Below, one piece after another: positions 3,542 through 32,000 of a stretch of DNA of 32,000 nt. Under the pieces are notes generated by a model. The model was not told the DNA's origin and made no database searches. It saw only the letters and a program-made list of their open reading frames with translations. Origin of the DNA: Promethearchaeota archaeon (GTDB lineage: Archaea; Asgardarchaeota; Lokiarchaeia; Sigyniarchaeales; SOKP01). The position numbers and the translations under genes were made by a program. Every line of letters begins with the position of its first letter. The first letter of the stretch is position 1. Location of the stretch: assembly GCA_030606485.1 (NCBI GenBank), contig JAUWGH010000010.1, forward strand, positions 49,317-81,316, written 5' to 3'.

Positions 3542-3671
3542 ATTCAACATCAAATTATTTAATGCTGAGTTGAGAAAATAAATTATAAAATATATAGTAC
3601 TATCAAAAAAAAATCGATTTTAATTTATTAAAATATTAAGGAGGGTAAAAAAACATAAAGAGGGATAAAAA

Positions 3672-6281
3672 ATGGATGTAAAAAAGAAAGGATTTATAAT
3701 TTACGGAAAAGTCTTAGGAAAAGTAAGCAAAAAAGGGATTACTAGCTTGACAGTTGAAGCATTGGATAAAGATCTATTATTTGATGATCGTTTGGGCACT
3801 GCAATTACTAATAAAGATGGTAATTTTGAAATTCTGTATGATAAAGAAGATTTTCAAGAACTTTTTCTTGATTTAAAACCAGATATATATTTAAGGGTGA
3901 AAAATCCAAAGGGAGAAATCATATATACCACAGAAGACAAGATCAAATATGGGGTTATAGGGGTAGAAGAGTTTAATATAGTTATTTCAGAAAAATTGAT
4001 CGAAAAAATAGAAGTTGAAAGCGAAAGGCTACAATTTAAGAAATTAACGGATATCAATCCTAATTACTTTGGAAATATAATCGATAAGAAACTCGCAATT
4101 CAATATCTCCCTGTATATGAAATGACAAATAATGTTAAATACGAAGAGTTAGTATGCGTGGGTTCTTATCCTGAAGATAATATACTAATGGCTATTATTG
4201 AAGTAAAATTGCCTTATGGTTATAAGGGATCACTATGTAAAGCAGGTAGCAAGGAATATGTAGGTTTTTATATTGATTACAATGATGGCGTCGGTTTTGT
4301 AAGTGTGGGCGCAATAACAGAGGTAAATGTTCATGATATTTCTTTTGTTGATGGAGGACATCTTTTTTATGCTGTACGCAAATCTTTCATTCCCAAGGAT
4401 TATTTTAAATGCAATAAATCACAAATAGTTAAAGTGAGGGCGATTTTATCTTGGGAACAATTACCAACGGGTCCTAATTTCGAACCAGTATGGGGAAATG
4501 TTGTTGATACATGGATTCAGATTAAACCAATATATCCAATTTTTTATTCTATCCCCCAATTTAAACTTTTACCAGAAGTAGAAATAAAACCTATTGGATT
4601 AATTCCTTCTGTTGAAAAGTTTGTAATTGCAGGGGATAAAGAAGAAATTATAGAATTAATAAATAAATCCATCGAAGCGGAAAAGAGAATAAAAGAAGAA
4701 GGAAAAGTTGAAGTAGAGCGGCTTGAATTTAAGAAGATGATTATGAAAAATCCAAATTACTTCGGCTCGATTACTGAATCTACAGATAAAAATAAGATTT
4801 TCAGAGTGATACGCCATCTTCCCCCAGATACTATCAAAATTTTACTCCCTAAACTTACAATTGATCCTAACATGCTTGTACCAGTAAAATTTTATATTCT
4901 GAAAACAATGTATGAAGAATTAAAATGTATCGGACTCTATCCTAATGGTGATCTTTTGGAAGCAGTTATAGAGATTAAATTGCCGTACGGGTTTAATGGT
5001 GATTTATGTACTCTAGGTAGTAAAGAGTATGTTGCTTTTTATATCGATTGGGGTTCAGGTTATAAGCATGTAGCTACATCGACGGTGGGAGTTCACGACA
5101 TCCCCGTTGTAAATGATAAACATCTTTTCTATGCCGTAAAGGCAAAAATTCCTAATATAAAATCAAAATTGAAAGATTGTCCTATTGAAAATATTGTAAA
5201 AGTCAAGGCAATATTATCTTGGAATGAAGACCCAACCCCCTATGGGCATATTTATAAACCAACATGGGGAAATGTATTAATAAGGAATATCCAGATAAGG
5301 CCAAAAGATGGAGTAAGCGTTAAATGTGATATTGAAATTGTCAATGAAGTGCATATTGATGAAATAAGTCAAAGTGGTATTAATGAAGGGCTTGCCATTA
5401 AGATTGATGCGTCAAACAATGCAGTTCCATTGATATATGATAGACCTTTTGGAGGTATCATTGCATGTTGGGGGAATATAAATGTTTGGGGTGCAGCATA
5501 TTACAGATTTAGATATAGCAATGATGAGGGTATTACTTGGAAAAATATTACGGATGAGAGGAAAGCACGTAATACATTTCCTTTGTTACCTGTTATCACA
5601 AGAACTCCAGATAGTAATGGATGGTTTAGTAAGAGTGAATATGATACTGATATAGATAACTATAGTCTTGCTCCCTTGGTACATTGGAGGAGTTATGGAA
5701 AGGATAATAAATATTTGCTAAAGCTTGAATTAGCAGATGCAGAGAAAAATCCACTTCCTGGACAAACAACTGATGTCTCACTTATACTGGATAATAGAGA
5801 ACCTGAACTTTTTACGTTTGGTGGAACTCCACCCCCAACACTGCCTACTAAAGGTGTTACTGTCAAAGATAGCGAAGGAAATTATAAAAAATGTGATGCA
5901 TTTATCGGAAATAAGGACTGGGAAGTATCTTTAATCTTTATCTATGGTAATTTCAGAGATGACTATTTTAAAAAATTTCGATTAAAAATATTTGGAGGAA
6001 ATATTTCAGAGTCTGGTGAACAAATAGGTGAAGAAGTTCGATATGATGATCCAATTCCAGGTGTTGATGAACAAGGCATTATTGGTGCCATCGATGGAGG
6101 ACTTGGTCAAGAGATTGGAAATTTAAATTTATGTCCTGATAAAATAAAGTGCGCTTACGGTATAGAACTCACGATTTGGGATAGATCGATTGTGGGCTCT
6201 GTTAGAGGATATGAATTTAATACATATAATCACGGAAAAGATGCTTTTGTAACCTTTGATTGGGACCCCAAAGGTTGTTAA
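3672..6281 (+). CDS. 869-aa hypothetical protein: N-terminal transthyretin/carboxypeptidase-regulatory-like domain, two tandem copies of an uncharacterised beta-rich domain, and a C-terminal beta-rich region
   Basis: ORF track; SD GAGGG at 3660-3664. Internal repeat ERLxFKK..NPNYFG..YEELxCxGxYP..LxAxIEx KLPYGxxGxLCxxGSKEYVxFYID..VHDI..HLFYAV..VKVxAILSW..PxWGNV..IQIxP at 4017-4529 and 4710-5303. Confidence 0.9.
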   Translation: MDVKKKGFIIYGKVLGKVSKKGITSLTVEALDKDLLFDDRLGTAITNKDGNFEILYDKEDFQELFLDLKPDIYLRVKNPKGEIIYTTEDKIKYGVIGVEEFNIVISEKLIEKIEVESERLQFKKLTDINPNYFGNIIDKKLAIQYLPVYEMTNNVKYEELVCVGSYPEDNILMAIIEVKLPYGYKGSLCKAGSKEYVGFYIDYNDGVGFVSVGAITEVNVHDISFVDGGHLFYAVRKSFIPKDYFKCNKSQIVKVRAILSWEQLPTGPNFEPVWGNVVDTWIQIKPIYPIFYSIPQFKLLPEVEIKPIGLIPSVEKFVIAGDKEEIIELINKSIEAEKRIKEEGKVEVERLEFKKMIMKNPNYFGSITESTDKNKIFRVIRHLPPDTIKILLPKLTIDPNMLVPVKFYILKTMYEELKCIGLYPNGDLLEAVIEIKLPYGFNGDLCTLGSKEYVAFYIDWGSGYKHVATSTVGVHDIPVVNDKHLFYAVKAKIPNIKSKLKDCPIENIVKVKAILSWNEDPTPYGHIYKPTWGNVLIRNIQIRPKDGVSVKCDIEIVNEVHIDEISQSGINEGLAIKIDASNNAVPLIYDRPFGGIIACWGNINVWGAAYYRFRYSNDEGITWKNITDERKARNTFPLLPVITRTPDSNGWFSKSEYDTDIDNYSLAPLVHWRSYGKDNKYLLKLELADAEKNPLPGQTTDVSLILDNREPELFTFGGTPPPTLPTKGVTVKDSEGNYKKCDAFIGNKDWEVSLIFIYGNFRDDYFKKFRLKIFGGNISESGEQIGEEVRYDDPIPGVDEQGIIGAIDGGLGQEIGNLNLCPDKIKCAYGIELTIWDRSIVGSVRGYEFNTYNHGKDAFVTFDWDPKGC
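4017..5303 (+). repeat. Intragenic tandem domain duplication (copy 1 4017-4529, copy 2 4710-5303)
   Basis: Direct amino-acid comparison of the two halves shows many identical blocks (NPNYFG, YEEL, KLPYG, GSKEYV, FYID, VHDI, HLFYAV, AILSW, WGNV). Confidence 0.95.
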
Positions 6282-6388: not shown

Positions 6389-6532
6389 GGGAGGATAAAG
6401 TCTTTAATGCTTCTCCGCCCATCAATAAATAGGGGGAGGAGGAGGGCGAAAATAAGTGTAGATAAATACTACACCAACCAAAAGACAAAAATCCAGTATG
6501 GGGGGAGATGCAACCTTTGACTTTATCCTTAC
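6389..6532. repeat. Palindrome-ended intergenic element A (MITE-like or structured RNA)
   Basis: Perfect 11-bp inverted repeat AGGATAAAGTC (6392-6402) / GACTTTATCCT (6519-6529); internal hairpin GTGTAG/CTACAC (6456-6474); interior GC-richer than the surroundings; shares four ordered motifs with element B. Confidence 0.6.
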
Positions 6533-6609
6533 CAATATTATCTAAAAATTAACTATAAAAAGATTTCTATTCCTTTTTTTTGTTTAAAAAGGTCCATTGA
6601 AATTATCAT

Positions 6610-7416: not shown

Positions 7417-8445
7417 ATGAGTAAAATCAATCGAAGGAAAAAAAATAATAAATGGAATACATCAGAAAATGAAGAAGTAAAAAGATATTATTTATTGGGT
7501 AATAAATTTCTTGAACAAAGAAATTTCCAAGAAGCAATAATCTATTATAAAAAAGCATTAGAAATTGATCCTCAAGATATATTAACACTTTCTAATTTAG
7601 GCCGAGTATACCATCATTCCTATGTTCTGCAATCATCAACTAAAGATCTGAGTTTATTGGACAATTCTGAAGCTTGTTATCTAGAAGCAACAAAAATAGA
7701 TCCCAATTTTTGGTTATCATACTTCACTTTGGGAGTAATTAAAATTGAACGGAAAGAATTTTTGAAAGCACTAACATATCATCTGAAATTTCTTACTGTT
7801 TATGAAAAAGCGAAAGTAAAAAACTTCAAAATGTATAATCATGCAACCAATTATATTGTAGAATCCATTAAAAAAGGAAAAATTTCTGTAGAATCATTCA
7901 AAAAATTATTAAATATCTCAATTTCTAAAGAAATATGGACACTATTGGGATACGGTTTGCTACATAGTCAATTATATGAATCTGCCGAATTATGCTTTCT
8001 TAAAGTAATCGAAAAACACCCGGATTATTCTAGTGGATACATTGATTTGGGAAATGTGTATATTGAGATGATTAAAAATATTCCCGATTATTGTCCTAAT
8101 TTTAATAAAATTAAAAATTATCTTAAAAAAGCCGTCGAGCTTGACACTAACAATGAAATTGCATGGAATAATCTTGGAACATATTACACATTTGTTGATG
8201 ATTTTGAAAAAGCGAAATTTTGTTATAAAACATCAATCAAACTCAAAAATTACTGCATAACTCCATGGTATAGTCTTGCAAGTATTCTGGTCAAGAAGGG
8301 TTTATATAAAGAAGCAATAAAATGCCTAAAAAAAGTCGTTCAAATTGATCCAAATTATACCCCTGCTAAAGAAGCGTTGGACATACTTAAGAATAATACT
8401 AAGGAACAATTATCCAGGAAAAGAATTGAATTAAGAATAAATTAA
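7417..8445 (+). CDS. Tetratricopeptide repeat (TPR) protein, 342 aa
   Basis: Multiple 34-aa TPR units, e.g. YYLLGNKFLEQRNFQEAIIYYKKALEIDP, AWNNLGTYY..FEKAKFCYKTSI, PWYSLASIL..YKEAIKCLKKVVQIDP. Confidence 0.92.
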   Translation: MSKINRRKKNNKWNTSENEEVKRYYLLGNKFLEQRNFQEAIIYYKKALEIDPQDILTLSNLGRVYHHSYVLQSSTKDLSLLDNSEACYLEATKIDPNFWLSYFTLGVIKIERKEFLKALTYHLKFLTVYEKAKVKNFKMYNHATNYIVESIKKGKISVESFKKLLNISISKEIWTLLGYGLLHSQLYESAELCFLKVIEKHPDYSSGYIDLGNVYIEMIKNIPDYCPNFNKIKNYLKKAVELDTNNEIAWNNLGTYYTFVDDFEKAKFCYKTSIKLKNYCITPWYSLASILVKKGLYKEAIKCLKKVVQIDPNYTPAKEALDILKNNTKEQLSRKRIELRIN

Positions 8446-8537
8446 ATCAATCAGTTAAACTAACCAATAACTTACAATTTTTGCAATATATAAAAGGATT
8501 ATGAACCTTTAATTGTAAAGGAGTTTCACATTTGGAA
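8445..8537 (-). repeat. Direct repeat R1: orphan copy of the 3' 93 bp of the Zn-ribbon gene (partner R2 at 10247-10339)
   Basis: Base-by-base comparison: 89/93 identical to 10247-10339. It encodes SKCETPLQLKVHNPFIYCKNCKLLVSLTD* with no in-frame start codon. Confidence 0.95.
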
Positions 8538-8545
8538 GATACTAC

Positions 8546-8566
8546 CTTTAGGACACCCTCCTAAAG
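8546..8566. terminator. Perfect hairpin CTTTAGGA-caccc-TCCTAAAG (possible terminator or recombination signal)
   Basis: 8-bp stem, 5-nt loop; lies 22 nt past the NTase stop and 8 nt from the inner edge of R1. Confidence 0.4.
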
Positions 8567-8588
8567 AGTAATAATAAAGTCTCATAAA

Positions 8589-9269
8589 TTATAATAAAAT
8601 TTTTAATACTTTATCAACACTCGATTTATTTTGCTTTAATCTCCCTGAAAAATAAGTAATTAGGTGATATACACATTCCGAAAGGGTATTGTAATTAAAA
8701 GTAAGGCAGGCAAGCTCAACTTCATAACTTGCGATATGCTTCTGCTTAGCTTTATCAAGAGCGTATTTTGCTAGCTTTATCGTATTTTTATGTAATGGTC
8801 GTAGCTTTTTAATTTGAGCAATTTTCTTTTTCTCCTGTTTAAATTCCTGATTTGTAAGGTATACAACGTCAACATAACATTTGGGATTTAAAAAATCTAT
8901 ATGGACAGCCTTGTCCCCCATATGCACTTTAGAATTCTTCTTAAATCCTTTTTTAGCCCTCTCTAAAAGATCCTTTCGAATAGTATTCTTATTTTGATCT
9001 TTGCCAGTACAAAAAATTATGTCTAAATCGCTCTTCCTAATATCTGTTCGCTTCCCTCGTGATCCACCTTCCTTTATCGCTGCGATTTTAAAACCTGTAG
9101 TCTTTCGTAGGAAGTTCATAACTCGGTTTAATTTCGAATCATATAATGTCTGGGTTTGAGGATCGGTATTAATTTTCTTTAAAAATTCTTTAAGCTTTCT
9201 ATTCTCTAATTTCTTAAGACTACTCGTTTTTTCCACCTTTGTATATTTATTGAAATAGTATTTTAACAA
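8589..9269 (-). CDS. Compact cGAS/DncV/OAS-like (SMODS-type) pol-beta-superfamily nucleotidyltransferase
   Basis: Signature IKEGGSRGKRTDIRKSDLDIIF (hG[G]S..K.T....SDxD, close to the OAS motif VKGGSSGKGT..GRSDAD), third Asp in CYVDVV, C-lobe helices IKLAKYAL and IASYEVELACL. The start is uncertain (TTG 9269 or GTG 9236). Confidence 0.8.
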   Translation of the reverse strand: MLKYYFNKYTKVEKTSSLKKLENRKLKEFLKKINTDPQTQTLYDSKLNRVMNFLRKTTGFKIAAIKEGGSRGKRTDIRKSDLDIIFCTGKDQNKNTIRKDLLERAKKGFKKNSKVHMGDKAVHIDFLNPKCYVDVVYLTNQEFKQEKKKIAQIKKLRPLHKNTIKLAKYALDKAKQKHIASYEVELACLTFNYNTLSECVYHLITYFSGRLKQNKSSVDKVLKILL

Positions 9270-9448
9270 GAAAATTCGACTATTTAAATTTATCTTACTT
9301 TTTAAGGATCCTTGTTATGGATATCCTTTTGATATATATTCTAAAACTAGATTTTTGTTTTTTCTTAATGTTAGATATTTTGATAGTCTGATTTACATGA
9401 AATAGAGACATCGTTATTTTTAATAAATTTCCAAATTTTAATCAAAAA

Positions 9449-9552
9449 AGAAGGATAAAGCCCGTTGGTATTTATTTCCTCTAAAAAACGAGGTTAAGGG
9501 CATTGGCGAAAACATTTCGAATATAAATACCGATTTTTGACTTTATCCTTAC
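9449..9552. repeat. Palindrome-ended intergenic element B (related to element A)
   Basis: Outer IR AAGGATAAAG (9451-9460) / CTTTATCCTT (9541-9550); inner IR GGTATTTAT (9467-9475) / ATAAATACC (9523-9531); right end TTTGACTTTATCCTTAC identical to element A. Confidence 0.6.
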
Positions 9553-9622
9553 AGAAACAATTGATAAATATGTATAAAAAGATCACAATTTTTCTTCGCT
9601 CTCTCAAATTTTTTAAGGGGTA

Positions 9623-10150
9623 TTAAGAAGAAATTTTCATTTCAGCGATTCTTAGCGCAGCCTTTAGAATGGGCATTATTTTTTTTTTAATTTTATGTCG
9701 GGTTAACTTGCTTTTAAGGCATTCAAATTTATCCTCTTTTTCCTCGTTTTCTTCGCAACATTTTCTAGCTTTATCAAAAATGAACAGAAATTGCTCGGAA
9801 TATGGTTTATCTTTCTGAAATTGATAACTAAAAATCTCATCATCATCAAGGGATTTGAAAAACGCTAAACAAGGAATTTTTGTATAACTAATGCCTAACT
9901 CTTTCATTAAACTAAAAATCTTGACTGGGGGATTTGGATCTTTTAAATCGTCTAAAATAAAGACGAATACGTCCTCACCGGACATGTCGTCTAAAATATT
10001 GTAGGATTGGATGACGTAATTTCTTAATTTCTCATGATCCTTATTATATAACAGTAAAGCATATAAATTCCTCCAAGAATTTTTGATTTCCCCCCAATAT
10101 TTGTATAAGTCATTAATGTCCATAGTTGGTTTAACAAATATTGCTGCCAT
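9623..10150 (-). CDS. Hypothetical protein, 175 aa, possible thioredoxin-like alpha/beta fold without CxxC, basic amphipathic C-terminal helix
   Basis: ORF track; strand/helix pattern LYALLLY..helix..LDDMSGEDVFVFIL..LMKELGI..IPCLAFF. The fold call is inference. Confidence 0.7.
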   Translation of the reverse strand: MAAIFVKPTMDINDLYKYWGEIKNSWRNLYALLLYNKDHEKLRNYVIQSYNILDDMSGEDVFVFILDDLKDPNPPVKIFSLMKELGISYTKIPCLAFFKSLDDDEIFSYQFQKDKPYSEQFLFIFDKARKCCEENEEKEDKFECLKSKLTRHKIKKKIMPILKAALRIAEMKISS

Positions 10151-10246
10151 TTAAATCGCTCTATTGTCATGAAATGCTAATAATAAACTATTGTTTTTGA
10201 TCTATTAAAAATATTTTGACACCCAAGTCGACACTTGAAATTAAAG

Positions 10247-10339
10247 AATCAATCAGTTAAACTAACCAAGAACTTACAATTTTTACAATATATAAAAGGA
10301 TTATGAACCTTTAATTGTAAAGGAGTCTCGCATTTGGAA
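10247..10339 (-). repeat. Direct repeat R2 (3' end of the intact Zn-ribbon gene)
   Basis: 89/93 identical to 8445-8537; offset 1802 bp. Confidence 0.95.
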
Positions 10340-10518
10340 CATATAATATTTCTTTCAGGAATAAGACCTACTATAAACTGACATTCACCGCAATAGACAA
10401 AGGGCTTTTGAACCTCTAATTCGAAGGGCTTATCGCAAGCCGGGCATCTAGCACTATGCTCATGAAAAATAGTTTCAATCCCTTCTACATTGTAAATATT
10501 CATTACTTCCGAATACAT
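10249..10518 (-). CDS. Double zinc-ribbon small protein (four CxxC pairs), probable start MYSEV at 10518
   Basis: CPAC..CGEC..CSKC..CKNC; internal duplication CxxC-x-P-x6-PF[VI]YCxxCxF[IL]V. The paralogue at 11912 also starts MYSEV, which supports this start over 10530. Confidence 0.85.
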   Translation of the reverse strand: MYSEVMNIYNVEGIETIFHEHSARCPACDKPFELEVQKPFVYCGECQFIVGLIPERNIICSKCETPLQLKVHNPFIYCKNCKFLVSLTD

Positions 10519-10669
10519 TTTCCATATCATTCTTTTAGTTAATATTCTGTATTAGGGATTTTAAAATACGCATATTTAAAGAAAAAATTTGAAGTGATTT
10601 GAATTGAGAGAATTTTTTTATTTAAATATCATGAGTTAAAATTACCATTAAAACAAAAAATGATGTATC

Positions 10670-11350: not shown

Positions 11351-11728
11351 ATGAAAAAAAAAGAAGTTAAATTTATACAAGGAAATTATGAACGGATTAA
11401 AGAAATAAGCAATTATTCTGGAGTTTCTTTCGATAAAGTCCTTAACGTCTCGTTGCTATCTGGAATTAAAGAATATTGGGGTAAAATAGTTAAAATCGTA
11501 AATAATTTTCCCGGATGTCTTTTGCCGGAAAATGAGAATTATGAGATAGTGCAGGACCTATTTGTTACACTCGGCAAAAAAATTGAATCTGAATATGAAG
11601 GAATAAAAGAGGTTGAGGCAATGGAAAGAGAATTTGATGAGATATATCCTGTTGGATATTTTGGAGATTTAGAAATAAGACATGAAGAATTCATAAAATT
11701 TTTAGATAGTACCAAAAAACGGTCATAG
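11351..11728 (+). CDS. Hypothetical protein with a possible N-terminal ribbon-helix-helix DNA-binding motif (probable start ATG 11351)
   Basis: EVKFIQGNYERIKEISNYSGVSFDKVLNVSLLSGI fits the RHH strand-helix-G-x-S-helix pattern; acidic C-terminus. Confidence 0.6.
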   Translation: MKKKEVKFIQGNYERIKEISNYSGVSFDKVLNVSLLSGIKEYWGKIVKIVNNFPGCLLPENENYEIVQDLFVTLGKKIESEYEGIKEVEAMEREFDEIYPVGYFGDLEIRHEEFIKFLDSTKKRS

Positions 11729-11912
11729 AGATAATGGTTAATACATATTTAAAATATATATTCTCTTGAAACTTGCATTCGCTACAATAAATAAATGGCT
11801 TCTGAGTCTTTATTTTGAATGGTCTCTCACAAACCGGACATTTAGCCTTATAATCTTCAAAAAGAGAATTAATACTTTCAATACTGCTAATAATCACTAC
11901 TTCTGAATACAT
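11691..11912 (-). pseudogene. Diverged 5'-half copy of the Zn-ribbon gene (single ribbon, unrelated tail)
   Basis: First 48 aa are 24/48 identical to the 10249-10518 product (MYSEV..CPxC..PF..QKPFxYCxECxF); similarity then stops abruptly. The upstream DNA is also similar. Confidence 0.65.
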
Positions 11913-12061
11913 TTTACTTACTCATTTTAGTTGATGTTCTTATTGTTAATAATTTAAAATAGACATTTATAAAGAAATAAATAAAAAAAAAGCCTGAAGT
12001 TGAAATTTTTTCTTTTTTATTTATAAATGTTTAGTTGAAAAATATTTTAAAAAAATAATAT

Positions 12062-16144: not shown

Positions 16145-18706
16145 CTATATTTTTTCTTTAATAAATTCAAGAATAGAATTAAGAACAATATTACCAATGC
16201 TTAAACCGATACCTTTAGGAATGCTCAACCCCAAAGGTATTAATACATACTTAAATATTTTAAATACTGTTCTTCCTACTTTTTTAATCTTACTATCTCT
16301 CTCAATTAAATAAGGACCAACAAAACTCATAAAAGGAAGCCGTTCCTCATTTAACTTAGTTTCTCCATCAATTCTTATATAAAGTTCTTCAATAGTACTT
16401 GGTTCAGGAGCAAAAATATCAAAAGAACAGATAAAGTTTTGACCCACATTAATATTAATTCCATCTGGTGATAAAAATTCATAATAACTATCCTTTTGCT
16501 GCTCAAAATTTACCCTCTTTCCCTTTATTACAGCATCAAGAGGTTGAAGGTTTACGCCCATATTTTTTATTTCAAATGGAATTTTCGAATCAGTTATTAC
16601 AGATACTTTAAATCTTTCTCCAACCATTATTTTTGATTCTGTCTCTCTTGAGTCCTCAAATAATAATATTCCTTGTAATAATTGACCAATTATTATACTT
16701 GCAACCGCATTTAGATTAACTTTAATTCCTTCAATTGTACCAAGTTGTTTTTGGGTTAAATTCGCACTTGTTCTCACCAAATTATAAATATTTTTAGAAA
16801 TCTGTTTATTAATTTCGACCATTTCATTTAGATTATTTAGTTTTGATATTTCTGAGAGGATTTGAGAATATTGATGTATATTTAATTTAGATAATGCTCC
16901 CAGTTCCTTCTGAATAGATTCCCATAGATTTGCCATATTTCCGGTTATTGTATATTTTACATCTTTTATTTCACTAATCAATTCTTGCTTAGTATCATCA
17001 ATTTTCATCGATATTCTATTTGTCTCTAATCCAATTTCTTTTTTCACATCATAATACATACGTTTTAATCCTCTACTTATCTCTAAAGTTTGGTATTGAC
17101 TAACTCTTTCTAACCTTTCAAACATTTCTTCTTTGAAATTTTTCAATTCTTGTTTATATCCAATTTGAATTTTCTTTGTAAAATAACCATCTAAATCTTG
17201 AGTAACTCTTAATATTTGTAATAAAGCTGCTTTTTTTTCTGGAGGTATTACTTCGATAGAATTATATTCTTGTATACTACGAATAAAAGTGTCGAGAGAA
17301 TTTACCACGATAATTAGTTTTTTAAGATCCCATTTTTCAAAAATATTCTTTGTTTCTCCTAATTCTTTCAAATCTACTTTCTCAAATTCTAACGCATTTC
17401 TTAAAGAATTAAAGCATGTTTTTTTAGCTTTTAATAATTTTATTACATCTTCTGGAAATACTTTATTTTCAAACTCTATTAATTTATTATTTATTTGTTC
17501 TGAAATAATTATGGCATTGTCTTGTAATTCAATGAAAGTTTGACTATCTATACATTCTAAAAATTGTGTATCTAAAGGCTCTAATTGATTCATTAATTCT
17601 AAGATATTTTTAGTCCATAATTCATATTTATTTAATTTTTTTATATCATTAACAAATAGATCAGAATCTCTTTTTATAAATTGTTCTCTAGCTTTCCTAA
17701 ATTTAAATAAGGCTTCATTAAACTTGTGTAAATGAATAAATACTACACCTAAATTTCCATAAGCATCTGCACATGTTGGATCGCTCTCTATTGCTCTCTC
17801 ATAGCATTTGATTGCCTTGTCAAAATCACCAAGTTCAGAGAATGCAAGACCTTTATTATTCCACGCACTTGCACATGTTGGATCGATCTCTATTGCTCTC
17901 TCATACCAATTGATTGCCTTGTCAAAATCACCAAGCTCGGCGCATGCAATACCTTTATTATTCCACCCTCTTGCATAATTTGGATCGATCTCTATTGCTC
18001 TCTCATAGCATTTGGTTTCCTTGTCAAAATCCCCAAGCTTAGAGAATGCAATACCTTTATTATTCCAGGCATATGCAAATGTTGACTCGATCTCTATTGC
18101 TCTCTCATAGCAATTGATTGCCTTGTCAAAATCCCCAAGCTTAGAGAATGCATTACCTTTATTAAACCATACCTCTGCATGATTTGGATCGATCTCTATT
18201 ACTCTCTCATAGCATCTGGTTGCCTTGTCAAAATCCCCAAGCTTAGAGAATGCATTACCTTTATTATTCCACGCATCTGTAAATGTTGGATCGATCTCTA
18301 TTGCTCTCTCATAGCAATTGATTGCCTTGTCAAAATCCCCAAGCTTAGCGAGCACATTACCTTTATTATTCCACGCACCTGCATAATTTGGATCGATCTC
18401 TATTGCTCTCTCATAGCAATTGATTGCCTTGTCAAAATCCCCAAGCTCGGCCCATGCAATACCTTTATTATTCCACGCACCTGGAAATGTTGGATCGATC
18501 TCTATTGCTTTCCCATAGCAATTGATTGCCTTGTCAAAATCCCCAAGCTCAGAGAATGCAATACCTTTATTAAACCACGCATCTGCAAATGTTGGATCGA
18601 TCTCTATTGCTTTCCCATAGCATTTGATTTCCTTGTCAAAATCCCCAAGCTCAGAGAATGCAAAACCTTTATTAAACCACACCTTTGCTTTTTTTTGCTT
18701 TTTCAT
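16145..18706 (-). CDS. TPR-array protein, 853 aa: 9 near-identical plus 1 divergent TPR, helical/coiled-coil middle, Ig-like domain, hydrophobic C-terminal tail
   Basis: Consensus AxAWNNKGxAFSxLGDFDKAIxCYERAIEIDPxx repeated from aa 7. Confidence 0.95.
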   Translation of the reverse strand: MKKQKKAKVWFNKGFAFSELGDFDKEIKCYGKAIEIDPTFADAWFNKGIAFSELGDFDKAINCYGKAIEIDPTFPGAWNNKGIAWAELGDFDKAINCYERAIEIDPNYAGAWNNKGNVLAKLGDFDKAINCYERAIEIDPTFTDAWNNKGNAFSKLGDFDKATRCYERVIEIDPNHAEVWFNKGNAFSKLGDFDKAINCYERAIEIESTFAYAWNNKGIAFSKLGDFDKETKCYERAIEIDPNYARGWNNKGIACAELGDFDKAINWYERAIEIDPTCASAWNNKGLAFSELGDFDKAIKCYERAIESDPTCADAYGNLGVVFIHLHKFNEALFKFRKAREQFIKRDSDLFVNDIKKLNKYELWTKNILELMNQLEPLDTQFLECIDSQTFIELQDNAIIISEQINNKLIEFENKVFPEDVIKLLKAKKTCFNSLRNALEFEKVDLKELGETKNIFEKWDLKKLIIVVNSLDTFIRSIQEYNSIEVIPPEKKAALLQILRVTQDLDGYFTKKIQIGYKQELKNFKEEMFERLERVSQYQTLEISRGLKRMYYDVKKEIGLETNRISMKIDDTKQELISEIKDVKYTITGNMANLWESIQKELGALSKLNIHQYSQILSEISKLNNLNEMVEINKQISKNIYNLVRTSANLTQKQLGTIEGIKVNLNAVASIIIGQLLQGILLFEDSRETESKIMVGERFKVSVITDSKIPFEIKNMGVNLQPLDAVIKGKRVNFEQQKDSYYEFLSPDGININVGQNFICSFDIFAPEPSTIEELYIRIDGETKLNEERLPFMSFVGPYLIERDSKIKKVGRTVFKIFKYVLIPLGLSIPKGIGLSIGNIVLNSILEFIKEKI
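17771..18688 (-). repeat. Nine tandem 102-bp coding repeats (TPR units)
   Basis: Recurring DNA blocks such as GCCTTGTCAAAATCCCCAAGC and GGATCGATCTCTATTGC at 102-bp period. Confidence 0.95.
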
Positions 18707-23105: not shown

Positions 23106-24182
23106 TTAATTTAAAGACATCAAGAACTTCAAAATATTCTTTATCCATCTCTTCCATTGTGGATTTAATATTTTCCATCTTTCTATAGTAATTTTTAGTT
23201 CATTATAAAATGCAGTTCTTTCTTCTTTATTAAACTCTTCTATATCATCCAGAATGATGTTTTTAAATTTTTCAATTTTGATTTTATTGGGATTTTCTAA
23301 GTAGAATGATAATAATACATTTACATAAGATTTAATTCCAATAATCTTATTTTTTTTAATTTCTTTTTTAATTTTCTTTAATTCTTGTAAAATTAATGAT
23401 TCATTTTTCAGTTCATTTAATATCTCGCTGTTAGGTTCTTCTTTCTGAAAATAAAAAATTAATTGTGTTCTATTTTCTTTTAATTTCTTTATTTGTTCAC
23501 GCATTTCTTGGGAATTTAAATCAGGATTGAGCCATGTAGGGAAAAATTTCAAGGGCATTAAAGAAAAATTTTCAAAATAAAATCCTGACGTTGTTATTCG
23601 TGTTGACCAATATCCCAAACCAACCATTACTAACAGTTGTTCGGAATAAGGGAGAGTTAAGCGAGATAAGTGAATCGTAAAATCTTGAGTATCAAACATC
23701 TCATCGAAACGATAGCCAATCTGATAAATCTCTTTATCTAGGTATAGGATACCTTGCAGTTGAGATTTTAAATTCTCATCATTTCTAATCAATTGTTCGT
23801 TAAATATATTTTCTCTCCAAATATTAATATTTGCATATAGAATATTCTTAAGTCTTTCTCGATTAAGATTATATTCATCATAAGGATCTTCGAAATGCTC
23901 CAAGTTTCCTTTTAAAGCGTAAAAATTAAGTATGAATAGCTCTCTAGGTATAGTGTTTTCAATATCTACAAATTGCTTTTTATCAATATCCCAATTTTTA
24001 ATGTTAGTGTGAAGATTCCAAATAGTTTTAAGATTACTTTTATACTTCTCAAACCACCAGCTTATATTATATCCACTTTTATAAGTATCATCAAGACTGA
24101 TTATGTTTAATAAATCCCAAGCAAAATATCCATAATCCTTAATCATTTCACGAAAAAAGTCTTTTAAGATGGCTTCGTCCAT
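23106..24182 (-). CDS. Hypothetical protein, 358 aa, helical with a coiled-coil C-terminal region
   Basis: Long ORF, ATG start with upstream AGGT; no motif recognised. Confidence 0.8.
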   Translation of the reverse strand: MDEAILKDFFREMIKDYGYFAWDLLNIISLDDTYKSGYNISWWFEKYKSNLKTIWNLHTNIKNWDIDKKQFVDIENTIPRELFILNFYALKGNLEHFEDPYDEYNLNRERLKNILYANINIWRENIFNEQLIRNDENLKSQLQGILYLDKEIYQIGYRFDEMFDTQDFTIHLSRLTLPYSEQLLVMVGLGYWSTRITTSGFYFENFSLMPLKFFPTWLNPDLNSQEMREQIKKLKENRTQLIFYFQKEEPNSEILNELKNESLILQELKKIKKEIKKNKIIGIKSYVNVLLSFYLENPNKIKIEKFKNIILDDIEEFNKEERTAFYNELKITIERWKILNPQWKRWIKNILKFLMSLN

Positions 24183-24890: not shown

Positions 24891-27800
24891 ATGAGTAATG
24901 ATATTAAAAATAGCAAAGCCTATGAAATTGAAAAGCAAGTAATCATTGATATTGAAGAGGAAATCGGATATAAATTTAATATTCTTGATAAAGAGGAATT
25001 TTTTTATGCATTTCGTCCAATTTTTTATTCATTACTCGATTTAAAAAATGGATGGCCCCCTAATAATGATAAATTGGAAGAGTATCAGGACATAGAAGGT
25101 AAAAGTTTATTAGCAATTGTTATAGAAGCTGATCACATTACTGGACTATCCATTCAAGATGATCCAATAACCCCTATTAAAATCTCACAACTACCTAAAT
25201 CATTTAAGAATTTAAAATTTCTTAAAATTTTGGTTATAGGAAATCGTCATATTATAAATATACATCAATTTTTAGAGCATCTATCGAATTTAGAATTTCT
25301 TTCATTAGCACATACCAGATTGGTGTATGAATCTGGAATTTTTAACAATTTAGAAAACCTTAAAGGTCTAGATCTTGGATATTATTCCAGAAACATTGAT
25401 TTGATTAAGGAAGTTTGTAAAATTACTTCTTTACAAATGTTAGACCTTTCAAGAACAAACTTAAAGGTTATACCAGATTGTTTTCATAATTTATCTAATT
25501 TAAAAATTCTAGATTTGTCAGATAAAAATGATCTTCAATCCTTTCCTAGAAATCTAAAGGAGCTAAATAATTTAGAAATATTAACCTTATATCGAGCAGG
25601 TATTAGTAAAATCCCCGAAGATATTCAATTACCACAAAATCTTAAAGAAATTAACTTTAAACGTAATCCTTTTACAGAATTACCTAACAACTTTGAAGAT
25701 CTGCCAAAATTAGAAAAAATTCAAGTAGATGGTGATGTGATTGCAAACTATATTAGAAAAACCAAAACAGAATTGTATAATGAATTTCAAAAAGATGTTA
25801 AAGATATTAATTTTCACATTCTTTATTCTTTAACTCGAAAGAAGAAAACATTTCTTGATTTATTACTTGAAAATGGGATTAATTATGAAGAAGCTTTACA
25901 TATCTATAAAGACTTACTTCCTCCTATTAAAAAAGGAATTGATCCTTATTTCATAGATTCAGAAGAGGAAAGAGATAGAAAAAAAGCATTTAAAATCCTC
26001 TTAAATAATGATTTAAGATATATTAAATCTTTGCATAATGATTTAAAATGGATTTGTGAAAATCAAATAACTATAAAGAAAGTAGTATTAGAAGAAGATG
26101 ATAAAAAGAGAATAGTTAAGCTAGGCAGATTAAATATTTTTGTTGGAAAGAATAATTCTGGAAAAACTTATACTTTAAAGCAATTGTATGATAAAATTAG
26201 GAAAATAACTCCTGAGGAAGATATGCTTTCTGAAGATGAACCAAGAGATTTTTCTGGTATTGAAGTTGAAAAAAAAGGCGAATATGAACTATTTAAAGAA
26301 GGGGTTGATTGTTTTTACATTCCAAAAAGCAGAATATATAATGATATAGTGACACAAGGTGAGAGAAAGGGTTTTGAAAAATCGTTGAGTGATTTATTAG
26401 ATAATTTTAAGAAATTACAGTCAGAAGCGGATATTTGGTCATTTGATAAAATAATTGAAGTAATTAACTTTTTTAATTCTACTGATGAGGAGATCTCTGA
26501 ATTAGAGTCATCATCAAAAAAATTATTTAATGAGTTCCGTTTAATTTTAAAAAAATGGTTGGATGCACTTCATCTATATTTTCCAGATATCGACCTTAGA
26601 CTTCCAAAGCGTTCTGATTTTAACACAGTATATGAATTTGATTGTAAAGATGCATATATCCCTTCTTTAAGTTATAATTTTAATGAGCTAGGAAGTGGTA
26701 TGCAGGAATTATCTGTATTAATGTTTTTCATAGAACTTTTAAAATACTTGCCACAAATTAGAGCAGGTAAAATAATGGATACGAAAGAATATCATCGTAT
26801 GCTTTTTATTGATGAACCAGATTTAAGTTTACACCCAGAGCTTCAAGAAAAGTTTTTTAATTATCTTATTAATGCATCTCAAAGAATTCAAATTATCTTA
26901 ACAACTCAATCTCCATTTATACCTAAACCAGTTGAGAATCATATTTCTATTAAACTTTTTAGAAAAGACACCACAGGATTTCATTTTGATGAAATAACAA
27001 ATAATAATTTTGTACTTATTCAGGAAGAACTTTTTAGATACCAACCATTAGAAATTGCTTTATATCTCTCAAAAAATAATTATGAATATTTTAAAAAACT
27101 GGATTATAAATCTGAAGAAGTCTCCATGGGATTGTTTACTGAAAAGAGATACTGTAAAGATAAGAACTATTTAGGTCTTTTAAGACTGGGAACCGTAAAT
27201 TGGAATATGGAAGATAGGATATTGCAGAATGCCTACTTTTTAAGTTTTAATCCAAAAACTGTTGATTTAAACGATAGTTTCGATGTAGAACAAAACAATA
27301 AGAAAAGTTTAAGAGTTTTTATTGTTCAGCTTAATAAAATTCCTGATGAAGAAAGAAAGAAACTAATAGATAAATGTAATAAAAACTTAAAAAGTCAAAA
27401 TTCTATTTTAAGATTATTTACTTTATGTACAACAGTATGGGATAAAGAAAAATTAAAAAATTTTATACTTCATTATAATCTGGGACAACAGAATTCTATA
27501 AGTGAAAAAATAAGACAATATCTAAAAGAGATTGAAGAAGATATCATAGAAAATAAAAGTTTAATCCTTTTTTCAGAGAACACTTTACCCTACGCAATTT
27601 TACCATTTTTACTAGACTATTCAAAGAAGAATAAAGTAGTTATTATTGGAGGGATGGAACATTGCACTCTGGGTAATTTTAACAAAATCATAGACAACCT
27701 TAAAAATGAGTTACGAGAAAGATATAAAGATCCAATAAATTACATGGAACTAGAAGTTGACAATCTTATTGACAATGATACTTATCTTAATCAGGCAGTA

Positions 27801-28280
27801 ATAATTAATGCTGATAAATCTTTTACATTTCAGATAAAAAATCTCCCTGTTTATTTTAATTCAATTAAGAGAAGGGAGGGAATTCCAATAATATTAAAAC
27901 CATTATTTAAAAAGATCCAAACTGTTATTGGAAATATTGCAGTATTAATTTGTAAAGATCTTCTTGTAAATTCTGCTGTGATTGACACTTGGATGGATAT
28001 ACACGATATAAAAATACTAGCAACTCCATCTTTCACTAACTTAGTTAATCCTTTTAGAAACAAATTAGGAGAGATTATATCAAATAAAAAGCAAAAAGAT
28101 AAAGTCTTTATTTTTGCAAATATTTCCGAATATGGCGGATCAGGTGCATATAGTTATGTTAATCGGAGAGATTTTGAACCAAATAGAAAGAGTTTATTTC
28201 CATTTTGTTACGAAATTAAAGAAGAAGAATTCCGACATAGTATCGAAAATTGGAGAAAAAAGGATTTTACTTTTCATTAA
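24891..28280 (+). CDS. 1129-aa multidomain protein: N-terminal leucine-rich repeats, ABC-type (AAA_15/AAA_21-like) ATPase, C-terminal carbon-nitrogen hydrolase (nitrilase-fold) domain
   Basis: LRRs LxxLxxLxLxxN at ~25190-25735; Walker A GKNNSGKT (26145-26168); signature LGSGMQEL (26688-); Walker B/D-loop LFIDEPDLSLHP (26802-); switch TTQSP (26901-); nitrilase motifs RVFIVQ (~27312), LFSE896N, QIK983, LIC1021KD, ANISEYGGS. Confidence 0.88.
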   Translation: MSNDIKNSKAYEIEKQVIIDIEEEIGYKFNILDKEEFFYAFRPIFYSLLDLKNGWPPNNDKLEEYQDIEGKSLLAIVIEADHITGLSIQDDPITPIKISQLPKSFKNLKFLKILVIGNRHIINIHQFLEHLSNLEFLSLAHTRLVYESGIFNNLENLKGLDLGYYSRNIDLIKEVCKITSLQMLDLSRTNLKVIPDCFHNLSNLKILDLSDKNDLQSFPRNLKELNNLEILTLYRAGISKIPEDIQLPQNLKEINFKRNPFTELPNNFEDLPKLEKIQVDGDVIANYIRKTKTELYNEFQKDVKDINFHILYSLTRKKKTFLDLLLENGINYEEALHIYKDLLPPIKKGIDPYFIDSEEERDRKKAFKILLNNDLRYIKSLHNDLKWICENQITIKKVVLEEDDKKRIVKLGRLNIFVGKNNSGKTYTLKQLYDKIRKITPEEDMLSEDEPRDFSGIEVEKKGEYELFKEGVDCFYIPKSRIYNDIVTQGERKGFEKSLSDLLDNFKKLQSEADIWSFDKIIEVINFFNSTDEEISELESSSKKLFNEFRLILKKWLDALHLYFPDIDLRLPKRSDFNTVYEFDCKDAYIPSLSYNFNELGSGMQELSVLMFFIELLKYLPQIRAGKIMDTKEYHRMLFIDEPDLSLHPELQEKFFNYLINASQRIQIILTTQSPFIPKPVENHISIKLFRKDTTGFHFDEITNNNFVLIQEELFRYQPLEIALYLSKNNYEYFKKLDYKSEEVSMGLFTEKRYCKDKNYLGLLRLGTVNWNMEDRILQNAYFLSFNPKTVDLNDSFDVEQNNKKSLRVFIVQLNKIPDEERKKLIDKCNKNLKSQNSILRLFTLCTTVWDKEKLKNFILHYNLGQQNSISEKIRQYLKEIEEDIIENKSLILFSENTLPYAILPFLLDYSKKNKVVIIGGMEHCTLGNFNKIIDNLKNELRERYKDPINYMELEVDNLIDNDTYLNQAVIINADKSFTFQIKNLPVYFNSIKRREGIPIILKPLFKKIQTVIGNIAVLICKDLLVNSAVIDTWMDIHDIKILATPSFTNLVNPFRNKLGEIISNKKQKDKVFIFANISEYGGSGAYSYVNRRDFEPNRKSLFPFCYEIKEEEFRHSIENWRKKDFTFH

Positions 28281-30973: not shown

Positions 30974-31231
30974 TTTTTTATTCTGATATTATTAAAAATT
31001 AATAGTATTTGGAATATTTAAGGTGAATGGAGTTTAAATTTATTAAATCATCAAATTTAAGATTTTTATCCTTACAATATCAACTTTCAATTGGATAATC
31101 TTGTGTTAAATTATAAGATTCTTTGATATACAGATTTTATATATTCTCCAAAAATTTCATTCTTCAACTAAAAGATAAATTATAATTCCAATAAAACATT
31201 ATTATTTACTACTAAAACAAAAAGAAAGAAA

Positions 31232-31396
31232 ATGAAATTTAAGAAGAACAACTTAAGTTTAAAATGGAATAACAAAAAATTAAGTTGGAAAATAAATACC
31301 CCGAAAGAATTAGAGAAAAATAAGGTATTTTTTCAATGTCCAAATTGTGTAAAAGGAATTGTAAGTAACTTTGAAAAATTAATAGGAATTTTGTAA
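31232..31396 (+). CDS. Short ORF (54 aa) with one CxxC; possible Zn-ribbon remnant
   Basis: Hand translation MKFKKNNLSLKWNNKKLSWKINTPKELEKNKVFFQCPNCVKGIVSNFEKLIGIL*. Confidence 0.3.
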   Translation: MKFKKNNLSLKWNNKKLSWKINTPKELEKNKVFFQCPNCVKGIVSNFEKLIGIL

Positions 31397-31424
31397 AATT
31401 AATTGGAATATCTGATCTTCTATT

Positions 31425-32000
31425 ATGAACAAAAATCAAAATGATAAAGATCCAAAAGAAATGTTTGAATCTTTAGTATTCGAACATAAAAGAAAACTTA
31501 GTAATAGATTACAAAATTATATTACTTATGGGGTTAGTAGAGTAGATCATTATGAAAATCAGAAAAAAATATTTCTTGAAATGAATTTCACGATAATGAT
31601 TATTTTAGGTGCTATTTTGTCTGTATTTTTTGGTTTTTTGGATGATAAAGGAAAATGGATTATCTTTATCATATTAATCGCTTATTCTGTGCTTACCATT
31701 TTAAATATATTATTTAATTTAGAAGAACATTCAACCAAGTCCTTCAGAATAATGACTCGATATGATAAAGTTATTAAATTTATATTTAGATGTAAGGATA
31801 TCGAAGATGTGTTAAAAGAAGATGAAGGTTGGAATTCCTTATGGTTTTATAGAGGTAATATTTTAAGTAAAATGGATTTTGAAAGCTTATATAATTTTGC
31901 TACGGAGAGATTTAAAGGTAAAGTGAATCGAAATAACAACAAGAATATAATAGATTTATCAAATCAATTAATTAGAGATGATATTAAAGAGTTATATAAA
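31425..32000 (+). CDS. Gene running off the right edge; two-TM hairpin followed by a soluble domain
   Basis: Hand translation open for 192 codons from ATG 31425; TM1 MNFTIMIILGAILSVFFGFL, TM2 WIIFIILIAYSVLTILNILF. Confidence 0.8.
   Translation, partial: MNKNQNDKDPKEMFESLVFEHKRKLSNRLQNYITYGVSRVDHYENQKKIFLEMNFTIMIILGAILSVFFGFLDDKGKWIIFIILIAYSVLTILNILFNLEEHSTKSFRIMTRYDKVIKFIFRCKDIEDVLKEDEGWNSLWFYRGNILSKMDFESLYNFATERFKGKVNRNNNKNIIDLSNQLIRDDIKELYK

Follow-up and report, generated by a model that had tools for sequence, protein, structure and literature searches.

Insertion behind a zinc-ribbon gene in a Lokiarchaeial genome, with duplication of the gene's 3' end and no recognisable integrase

The window, a stretch of 32,000 nucleotides of a Lokiarchaeial genome, contains about 1.7 kb of DNA enclosed by two copies of the 3' end of a small double zinc-ribbon (Zn-ribbon) gene, one of which still belongs to the intact gene. 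How did this DNA come to lie behind the gene while leaving it whole, and was it brought there by a dedicated mobile element or by general recombination? The features of the locus are as follows.

7417 to 8445, plus strand: TPR protein gene of 342 aa (Pfam TPR_1, E 2e-29; a paralog of 92% identity lies on C10), convergent with the Zn-ribbon gene and its native downstream neighbour
8445 to 8541, minus strand: orphan Zn-ribbon 3' end (last 31 codons and stop), read as the native 3' end remaining beside the TPR gene
8542 to 8588, no strand: junction spacer between the orphan and the NTase stop, with a perfect hairpin at 8546-8566
8589 to 9302, minus strand: NTase module, made up of the gene for a minimal pol-beta-type nucleotidyltransferase and the ~66 nt upstream of it
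9303 to 9622, no strand: intergenic stretch with the palindrome-ended element B (9451-9550)
9623 to 10150, minus strand: 175-aa orphan-family gene (module about 9627-10166)
10247 to 10343, minus strand: right repeat copy, the 3' end of the intact Zn-ribbon gene, from repeat search and pairwise alignment
10249 to 10530, minus strand: intact 93-aa double zinc-ribbon gene (B type), the insertion target, with two CxxC...CxxC ribbons and weak DZR matches in Pfam
11691 to 11912, minus strand: 5' orphan of a second (A-type) Zn-ribbon paralog, with homology over 11769-11980 and an unrelated C-terminal extension

The repeat search and the pairwise alignment revealed one direct-repeat family, in which 8445-8541 matched 10247-10343 over 97 nt with 95% identity (5 mismatches) and a start-to-start spacing of 1802 nt. 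A sequence-only reading of this DNA had described a 93-bp duplication with 4 mismatches and no start codon; this duplication is real, and the fifth mismatch, at 8539, lies outside the shorter version. BLAST lengthened the match to 8439-8541 versus 10238-10343, with a 3-nt gap included, and about 8 nt past the Zn-ribbon stop (10238-10246 versus 8439-8444) were possibly duplicated too. The left copy starts on the final base of the TPR stop codon (8443-8445). It has no start codon and no ORF of at least 30 aa, and an in-frame TAG lies just upstream. The right copy spans the final 31 codons and the stop of the 93-aa gene and 2 nt. The NTase gene, a 353-nt intergenic stretch with element B, the 175-aa gene and the hairpin lie between the repeats. 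The attL/attR-like topology claimed earlier was borne out by the 97-nt repeats, the intact 93-aa gene and the orphan copy. At least 8 derived positions were common to both repeat copies when compared with a paralog on contig C10 and a homolog in G002; the repeat is therefore a true duplication and not the conservation of a gene family. No significant similarity to the Zn-ribbon gene was found past 8541. HMMER had aligned residues 50-61 there, with stops, and a match had been seen by eye; this extension was ruled out by Smith-Waterman comparison with 3000 random genomic 59-mers (p about 0.7). Searches for tRNAs and Rfam families found nothing in the window.

A Logan contig from the probable source run spanned 8495-10315 with 0 differences and joined the cargo to copy-specific variants at both sides. 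The depth of the cargo in this run was 61.6, compared with 60-63 in the flanks. Contigs of another study (X6) bridged the TPR gene, the orphan and the NTase gene, and the ENA contig L050 covered 9462-10307 at 98%. Furthermore, the junction at 8541/8542 was identical across independent samples. The reproduction of the occupied structure in assemblies of other studies and the even depth therefore exclude an assembly artefact, an outcome that the sequence-only reading had named as fatal to its proposal.

In two metagenome contigs (L060 and L061), the B-type Zn-ribbon gene runs uninterrupted into the TPR gene, with a single copy of the 97 nt. The gene shows 90-92% nucleotide identity to 10238-10590 and the TPR gene 94%; in L060 the Zn-ribbon ortholog is 92% identical, and its stop lies 1 nt from the TPR stop. 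The window exceeds these contigs by exactly 1802 bp, that is, the cargo and one repeat. L060 and L061 are a true empty site, such as the earlier reading had proposed to look for. The junction between the TPR and Zn-ribbon genes is kept in C10, L060, L061, L063, L064 and L068. The orphan agreed with all three empty-site alleles at two of the five differing sites (TGT and GAA codons), where the intact copy did not, and with L060 and L061 at a third; one nonsynonymous change and one change at the boundary were private to the orphan. The right copy carried two to three synonymous variants missing from the orphan and most empty-site alleles. The same 3' end was also found beside other DNA in L062, L066, L067 and L068, as had been suggested as a check. 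The orphans of this 3' end varied among strains, with different cargo and breakpoints at 97, about 82 (L068, behind a 181-aa gene), about 81 (L067) and about 60 nt (C3:33.2 kb).

The A-type 5' orphan shares 86-90% identity with the C10 and G002 genes over their 5' halves. The orphan at 8445-8541 and the 5' fragment at 11769-11912 were considered as the two halves of one gene carrying a 3.2-kb insert, an arrangement that fitted C10 and G002; this candidate was rejected. Because the B-type gene is contiguous with the TPR gene in L060 and L061, and because L063 carries a clean recombinant between the A-type 5' part and the B-type gene, the 97-nt event is separate from the truncation of the A-type gene, which is an older rearrangement. 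The L063 recombinant also indicates that homologous recombination between diverged paralogs occurs at this locus.

Among assembled contigs, no listed joint skips 1802 nt and none closes a circle; these are contigs only and are not evidence of absence. Other joints were seen at 6539/9420, 7177/10558, 7133/12006, 6881/10670, 8609/10612 and 12067/7313, with short sides or low depth, and they probably reflect paralogs or other strains.

The two cargo genes have separate histories. The NTase gene (8589-9269, minus strand, likely start 9236) gave weak matches to SMODS and a CBASS cyclase, under the family cut-offs (NF041116, 34.9 bits versus 200; SMODS, 25.5 versus 26.5). The module recurs at 85-89% nucleotide identity in at least 5 other contexts. 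In L016 and L052-L059 the homology covers exactly the span 8589-9302 with different flanks, and across other contigs it ends at 8583-8595 and at 9302. The neighbour of the NTase in several other genomes is a 257-aa HEPN-like gene, an Rx4H, RiboL-PSP-like partner that adjoins it in L016, L052 and L055; no such partner gene was found in the window. A CBASS pair of CD-NTase and effector was rejected on account of the cyclase score below the family threshold and of the 175-aa gene, which never adjoins NTase homologs elsewhere. A HEPN-NTase pair of the MNT/HEPN-like kind was likewise rejected, the partner being missing from the window and the homology stopping at 9302. The NTase at this locus does not belong to a new two-gene defence system; it is a piece of a HEPN-NTase module left stranded. 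Direct repeats around the NTase homologs in other contigs were absent except for a 160-nt pair in L057, and viral contigs contained no close relative of the NTase or of the 175-aa protein.

The 175-aa protein had no match in Pfam, PADLOC or NCBIfam and only 3 relatives among 5.8 billion proteins. An Atlas model suggests a thioredoxin-like alpha/beta fold; AlphaFold without an alignment gave a pLDDT of 46. The gene is found elsewhere alone, without the NTase, and in L049 it occurs at 83% nucleotide identity between unrelated flanks. In one strain of run X5 it adjoins the Zn-ribbon gene, and the left flank differs from about 9417. Breakpoints between strains fall in the intergenic stretch at 9351 and 9417-9420 (runs X2 and X5). 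In the cargo, two unrelated single-gene modules have been brought together by accretion, and they do not form a functional system. The sequence-only reading had the NTase and its partner arrive together as a recent unit. The joint arrival is contradicted by the separate occurrence of the modules, the X5 strain and the frequent HEPN-like neighbour; the recent date is not supported, given the 5% divergence of the repeats and the occupied form, which is common to populations from several studies.

Element B is related to element A (6392-6529): both have the termini AAGGATAAAG...CTTTATCCTT, and their right ends are identical over 17 nt. Neither stretch matched Rfam. Terminus pairs of this type number only 3 in the genome, which ruled them out as cassette boundaries. 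The hairpin at 8546-8566 has an 8-bp stem and a 5-nt loop, and the spacer sequence around it is unique in the genome and among all loci compared. A role for the hairpin as a special signal was dismissed, since perfect hairpins of this sort abound (the 81-kb contig has 44).

In a Pfam scan, neither the cargo genes nor the further ORFs of the window that were covered matched an integrase, and none was found on the 81-kb contig. Across the whole genome, the tyrosine-recombinase family PF00589 matched only twice, each time on contig C1, and one of these two sequences is broken by an internal stop; PF00239 gave 0 matches, hence no serine recombinase. These negatives cover recognised families only. 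The Pfam scan detected no transposase domain in the cargo, and a transposon or insertion sequence was excluded, given also that the cargo ends are not inverted repeats and that the duplication is 97 nt long.

The arrangement of an intact gene 3' end, cargo and a downstream orphan was found genome-wide in 14 repeat pairs at about 10 loci, and its mirror image at gene 5' ends in 3 pairs. Among the targets, which are unrelated to one another, are Ldh_2, GH3, helicase, flippase-like, TPR and NYN-like genes; the repeats measure 56-611 nt with sharp boundaries, and the cargo lacks an integrase. No common motif was found at the boundaries of 12 analogous loci. At a comparable TPR duplication on C10, the intact gene is of a diverged type over its final ~100 nt and the orphan matches the window (17/17 informative sites; p = 0.0002 in a max-chi-square permutation test); further upstream the mosaicism is patchy. 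Such a pattern would be expected if the intact gene had received an imported 3' end, followed by heteroduplex repair. When the Ldh_2 and GH3 loci were examined for an imported 3' end with outgroups, their relatives were uninformative or absent. This signature is weak at the Zn-ribbon locus because only 5 sites differ between the repeats; they are compatible with a mosaic of donor and recipient, and are not decisive.

A homology-driven, Campbell-type insertion-duplication, polymorphic among populations and set in a hypervariable, orphan-gene-rich island, is the best reading of the locus, held with middling confidence. The ancestral state would have been an intact Zn-ribbon gene whose stop lay 1 nt from that of the convergent TPR gene. 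Incoming DNA carrying a 97-nt copy of the Zn-ribbon 3' end and about 1.7 kb of cargo would then have recombined with the chromosomal 3' end. We infer that this molecule was circular, or had been circularised, and that it entered through one homologous crossover, a natural 'pop-in' carried out by the general recombination machinery of the host and not by an integrase. The product would be the intact gene, the cargo and an orphan 3' end still joined to the TPR gene. Within the cargo, the NTase would have been cut off from the HEPN-like gene that adjoins it elsewhere and joined to the 175-aa gene. Recombination between the repeats could excise the cargo as a circle of 1802 bp, which could then insert again at any empty site. 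In favour of this reading, the repeat is single in the empty allele and the insert equals the cargo plus one repeat; moreover, many targets with varied anchor lengths are used in the same genome without sequence specificity. Against it, the 97-nt anchor is short, the model gives no origin for the first circular molecule, and the possible extension of about 8 nt may point to a copy templated at the same junction. Pure homologous recombination alone also does not predict an excess of 3' over 5' ends, for which selection against promoter-bearing 5' stumps is a candidate explanation.

It is possible, if doubtful, that the duplication arose locally and then decayed. Unequal crossing-over or template switching would have produced a longer copy of the Zn-ribbon gene, or of the gene and its neighbours. 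After loss of the 5' part of this copy, or its replacement by incoming genes, the 97 nt would remain as a deletion scar, possibly homogenised by gene conversion. The island is indeed rich in paralog fragments, including the A-type 5' orphan, at another locus of the genome, on C10, the orphan survives as two collinear pieces of a longer copy (459949-460076 and 463882-464061), and the possible 8-nt extension into the TPR end suggests a copy made at this junction. However, a longer second copy, which the earlier reading had said would refute its proposal, was seen at the locus in no contig of any run or collection. The constancy of the 8541/8542 junction among independent samples and the insignificant similarity beyond 8541 also speak against decay, and an initial insertion-duplication event would still be needed.

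The 3'-end bias and the sharp boundaries might instead reflect an undescribed recombination system, distinct from ordinary homologous recombination, which would be the main route by which Lokiarchaeia gain accessory genes; this we consider rather unlikely. Modules of one or a few genes would go in behind resident genes, the 3' end being regenerated and the orphan stump left as a scar, and a host- or vesicle-borne activity could circularise and re-insert the DNA.

A site-specific, integrase-less element that targets the Zn-ribbon 3' end, brings a replacement for it and is moved by an integrase encoded elsewhere is unlikely. It would account for the classical topology with a restored target gene and an orphan 3' end at the far side, the end of identity right after the stop codon, the empty site and the repeated use of the same gene end in different strains. 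On the other hand, the cargo and its contig lack an integrase and the genome offers only the two PF00589 matches, one of them broken; the orphan breakpoints vary, a dozen analogous loci share no core, and the cargo modules occur separately elsewhere. The route named in the sequence-only reading was mobilisation in trans or homologous recombination: the latter is the better supported, and site-specific integration is disfavoured by the missing integrase, the variable breakpoints and the lack of a motif. A chimeric join, or a repeat collapsed or expanded in this metagenome-assembled genome, is extremely improbable: the assembly is in 13 contigs with an estimated contamination of 4.65% and de Bruijn contigs end within the 41-nt identical core of the repeat, but the junctions recur in X6, X2 and L050, and the source run ties copy-specific variants to evenly covered cargo.

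Eukaryotes have no closer known relatives than the Asgard archaea, whose mobile elements described so far use tRNA genes or short att motifs, mostly with integrases. The clean polymorphism of occupied and empty sites and the roughly ten look-alike loci of this one genome show that small modules are repeatedly inserted behind resident genes, with the gene end duplicated and without a recognisable integrase. With uninterrupted sites in other populations and the same integrase-free pattern at about ten other loci of the genome, insertion by ordinary homologous recombination fits better than a dedicated mobile element. If this is general, host recombination alone could drive modular gene flow in these organisms, and the orphan 3' stump would provide a simple genomic signature with which to date and count acquisitions.

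Known integrated elements of Asgard archaea include the Heimdallarchaeial aloposons, which integrate at tRNA sites, and the HeimM/HeimV elements (PMC8813620). Like several other Atabeyarchaeia elements, Yucahu-i encodes a tyrosine integrase; it inserts at a short att motif of 11 bp (PMC11529989). The locus described here resembles these elements in being accessory DNA that is polymorphic in an Asgard chromosome, but its insert measures 1.7 kb and lacks an integrase, and the 97 nt duplicated come from a protein gene. Integron cassettes are likewise single-gene modules, each followed by an imperfect palindrome, as element B lies ~70 nt downstream of the 175-aa gene; however, there is no IntI or canonical attC core here, the termini are non-canonical, the genome holds only 3 such palindromes, and the limits of the modules fall elsewhere. 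With the CIMEs (cis-mobilisable elements of streptococcal ICE families) and other elements that target 3' ends, the locus shares repeats derived from the target 3' end, a restored gene, an integrase-less element and an empty site in relatives; it differs from them in that no cognate integrase or fixed core was found and in that breakpoints, targets and repeat length vary. Campbell-type insertion-duplication, the single-crossover 'pop-in' of circular DNA, serves to knock in genes in Haloferax, Thermococcus and bacteria. As in such knock-ins, the segment is single in the empty allele, direct repeats surround the inserted DNA, no dedicated recombinase takes part, and reversal through recombination of the repeats gives a circle; since the homologous segment extends to the end of the target gene, the gene remains whole. 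Unlike the knock-ins, the insertion here would have happened naturally, and repeatedly at many loci of a single genome, with short anchors of 56-611 nt.

The genome under study (G000) comprised 3.75 Mb in 13 contigs, and the window was the end of contig C3 (81 kb, 26.9% G+C). A repeat search and pairwise alignment revealed a single direct repeat, 8445-8541 versus 10247-10343 (97 nt, 5 mismatches, spacing 1802), which BLAST lengthened to 8439-8541 versus 10238-10343 including a 3-nt gap. The features of the locus were as follows.

Features of the locus (window positions)
7417-8445, plus strand: TPR gene, convergent
8445-8541: left repeat copy (orphan), no start codon and no ORF; its first base is the last base of the TPR stop codon
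Spacer of 47 nt with an 8-bp hairpin (8546-8566), adjoining the orphan inside the repeats
8589-9269, minus strand: nucleotidyltransferase (NTase) gene, 215/226 aa
Intergenic DNA of 353 nt between the NTase and 175-aa genes, with palindrome-ended 'element B' (9451-9550)
9623-10150, minus strand: 175-aa gene
Spacer of 96 nt between the 175-aa gene and the right repeat
10247-10343: right repeat copy, the last 31 codons, stop codon and 2 nt of the intact Zn-ribbon gene
10249-10530, minus strand: intact 93-aa Zn-ribbon gene, two CxxC...CxxC zinc ribbons

Relative to the paralog from contig C10 and the homolog from another genome, G002, the two repeat copies had at least 8 derived positions in common. 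Therefore, they represent a genuine duplication and not mere gene-family conservation, and the duplicated Zn-ribbon 3' end bracketing two genes, proposed in the sequence-only reading, was confirmed as one intact gene and one orphan.

Element B and element A (6392-6529, core 6424-6496) are both palindrome-ended and have the termini AAGGATAAAG...CTTTATCCTT in common. The G-rich element A core (~73 nt) had 5 matches in the genome and was conserved in 24 of 24 other same-family genomes searched (96% within the genus); it gave no tRNA and no Rfam match, and the fold z of its minus strand was −2.3. Homology to C10 and to a strain in sequencing run X6 begins exactly at the left arm of element A (6397). 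The last 118 nt of C3 (31883-32000) recur at 100% identity as the first 118 nt of both C1 and C2, and 31053-32000 and the start of C5 share 91% identity; contig ends thus carry a repeat here, and C3 probably joins the chromosome there. C3 also bears a RadA-like fragment. Within an 853-aa TPR protein gene (16145-18706, minus strand), ~102-nt units of one TPR each, 84-88% identical, form a tandem array at 17763-18688. A 1129-aa protein (24891-28280) has a defence-like architecture, with leucine-rich repeats and an AAA_21/AAA_15 (AbiEii/OLD-like) ATPase in one chain. Most other window genes had no Pfam match.

Ten loci emerged when metagenome contigs were scanned with the Zn-ribbon protein as a query. 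In L060 and L061, a gene of the window type (B-type), 90-92% identical to window 10238-10590, ran straight into a TPR gene 94% identical to window 8549-7907; the 97 nt were present in single copy, and in L060 the two stop codons were 1 nt apart. The window differed from these alleles by exactly 1802 bp. Junctions of the Zn-ribbon and TPR genes without cargo were also found at the paralogous C10 locus, L063, and L064. These cargo-free junctions indicate that the attL/attR-like topology previously proposed is correct: the native gene end is the orphan adjoining the TPR gene, and the cargo separates it from the regenerated gene. The Zn-ribbon 3' end also flanked other DNA. L068 carries an ~82-nt orphan adjoining TPR with an unrelated 181-aa gene before it, and ~81-nt and ~60-nt orphans lie beside a 130-aa membrane-protein gene in L067 and at C3:33.2 kb of G000, respectively. 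In L062, the intact Zn-ribbon gene forms the junction with the 130-aa membrane-protein gene, and another neighbour again lies behind the Zn end in L066. The gene end is thus a recurrent junction with varying breakpoints. Upstream of TPR in L068 (1943-3424) is a 493-aa zinc-ribbon protein, transposase-like by eye, which is absent from the window.

DNA homology of the NTase elsewhere covered exactly 8589-9302 (85-89% identity), and this module occurred in at least five differing contexts (L016, L052/53, L055/56, L057/58, and L059). In three of them, on contigs that are also Lokiarchaeial, its divergent partner was a conserved 257-aa protein (L016:582-1355, L052:4046-4819, and L055:4046-4819) with an Rx4H motif and a weak match to RiboL-PSP HEPN; this protein is absent from the window. 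The pair is possibly a HEPN-NTase module, from which the NTase alone remains in the window. SMODS and CBASS cyclase models matched the NTase below their thresholds only. Metagenomes of marine sediments and cold seeps, among them the LCGC14 data set, were the source of its relatives. L057 has a ~90-nt G-rich intergenic element (GGGGCACCACGGGGGAGGGAGA core; 43-131, 2700-2798, 3633-3679) between gene modules, adjoining the NTase homolog, and a 160-nt direct repeat pair (911-1070/3380-3539) starting directly 3' of the NTase stop codon. The 175-aa protein had three relatives among 5.8 billion proteins. Its gene alone was conserved in L049 (window 9627-10166), with unrelated flanks, and no case beside an NTase homolog was found elsewhere. 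In run X5, a contig carrying the 175-aa gene and the Zn-ribbon gene end diverged from the window at ~9417, and NTase pieces were present at lower depth. The cargo is two unrelated modules and not a system; because these occur separately, joint arrival as a functional pair is not supported.

Genome self-BLAST, in which direct-repeat pairs 200-15000 nt apart were classified, revealed 14 pairs (~10 loci) with an intact gene 3' end, cargo, and a downstream orphan copy, and 3 pairs of the mirror-image 5' type.

Loci with 3'-end duplications in G000, all without an integrase
C1: 7667-8008/9263-9604; 279737-280002/285261-285526; 395951-396115/397683-397847
C10: 309375/311738; 438579/439852; 459949/465362
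C8: 320341/322793
C13: 46490/48277
C4: 211480-224374, several NYN-like gene 3'-end orphans in series

The C4 series looks as if produced by repeated insertions. The targets were unrelated (Ldh_2, GH3 hydrolase, MrfA-like helicase, flippase-like protein, glycosyltransferase, NYN-like protein, TPR, and others), the repeats were 56-611 nt long, and the cargo varied (ABC transporter plus PadR; nitroreductase; BNR protein plus epimerase; unknowns). All boundaries were sharp.

At C10:80029-83827 (L039:2029-5827), two unknown genes of 260 and 165 aa separate a TPR paralog from a 611-nt orphan copy of that paralog's 3' part. When the window TPR gene served as the reference, the intact C10 gene was of a diverged type over its last ~100 nt and the orphan matched the window (17 of 17 informative sites; max-chi-square permutation p = 0.0002). 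Further upstream, runs of sites switched between both types. This is the trace that would be expected of a crossover with exogenous diverged DNA and patchy mismatch repair. Of the five differing sites in the Zn-ribbon repeats, the orphan equalled every one of the three empty alleles at two and most of them at one more; the intact copy had synonymous variants at these sites. The orphan was private at the remaining two, one a nonsynonymous change and one at the repeat boundary. This pattern, comprising five sites only, is a weak signal, compatible with an imported 3' end.

The window Zn-ribbon gene is itself a mosaic: in its 5' part, identity to the C10 and G002 genes (A-type) is only 70-74%. 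An A-type copy, the second Zn-ribbon paralog, survives as a 5' orphan (11691-11912, with the A-type sequence at 11769-11912) that retains the promoter region, has a new 25-aa tail, and overlaps the end of a convergent 134-aa gene. L063 (1180-1600) is a clean recombinant, A-type to ~codon 37 and B-type beyond, which demonstrates homologous exchange between these diverged paralogs. The homologous Zn-ribbon locus of G002 adjoins genes whose translations, read by eye, resemble eIF6 and the ribosomal proteins L31e, L39e, and S19e. The organism is probably a Lokiarchaeial (Asgard) archaeon.

The best explanation appears to be a Campbell-type single crossover, in which a chromosomal gene end would have recombined with a circular or circularised DNA molecule that bore the cargo together with its own copy of the gene end; our confidence in it is evenly balanced. 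It draws on the one homologous segment in the empty allele and direct repeats in the occupied one, the many unrelated targets, the variable anchor length, the lack of an integrase, and the homologous exchange in the region. The same repeats would permit 'pop-out' of a 1802-bp circle able to re-enter empty sites, and thus the structure could spread without an enzyme of its own. A longer local duplication, since decayed, is a rather unlikely origin of the repeats. Plain homologous recombination does not account for the excess of 3'-end over 5'-end pairs, which therefore leaves room for a possible but improbable reading, an undescribed insertion mechanism regenerating gene ends. A site-specific element mobilised in trans is very doubtful: Pfam found no recombinase in the cargo, other scanned window ORFs (sole near-match, a sub-threshold SAM-like gene product at 23106-24182), or scanned cargo proteins of the other loci, breakpoints vary, and the boundaries of these loci have no common motif. 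Genome-wide, PF00589 had two matches, both on C1 and one with an internal stop, and no serine recombinase was found.

An assembly artefact can practically be dismissed, since one Logan contig of the probable source run spanned 8495-10315 with 0 differences and with copy-specific variants joined to the cargo at both ends, its depth (61.6) equalled that of the flanks (60-63), and X6 contigs from an unrelated study connected TPR, orphan, and NTase. The cargo was also present in run X2, and ENA contig L050 covered 9462-10307 at 98%. The even depth and the contigs from other studies indicate a single-copy insert that occurs in several sediments and is apparently fixed in the source population. With 5% divergence between the repeats and the insert shared by several populations, the event was not very recent. 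The sequence-only reading is thus partly supported: its topology stands and an empty site exists, but recency and paired arrival are not supported.

These results indicate that the locus is a natural insertion-duplication of a kind that lacks an integrase and recurs in this Asgard genome. Published accounts of integrated elements in Asgard archaea do not describe this insertion pattern; they report integration at short att motifs or tRNA genes, and most of the elements encode an integrase (PMC8813620, PMC11529989).
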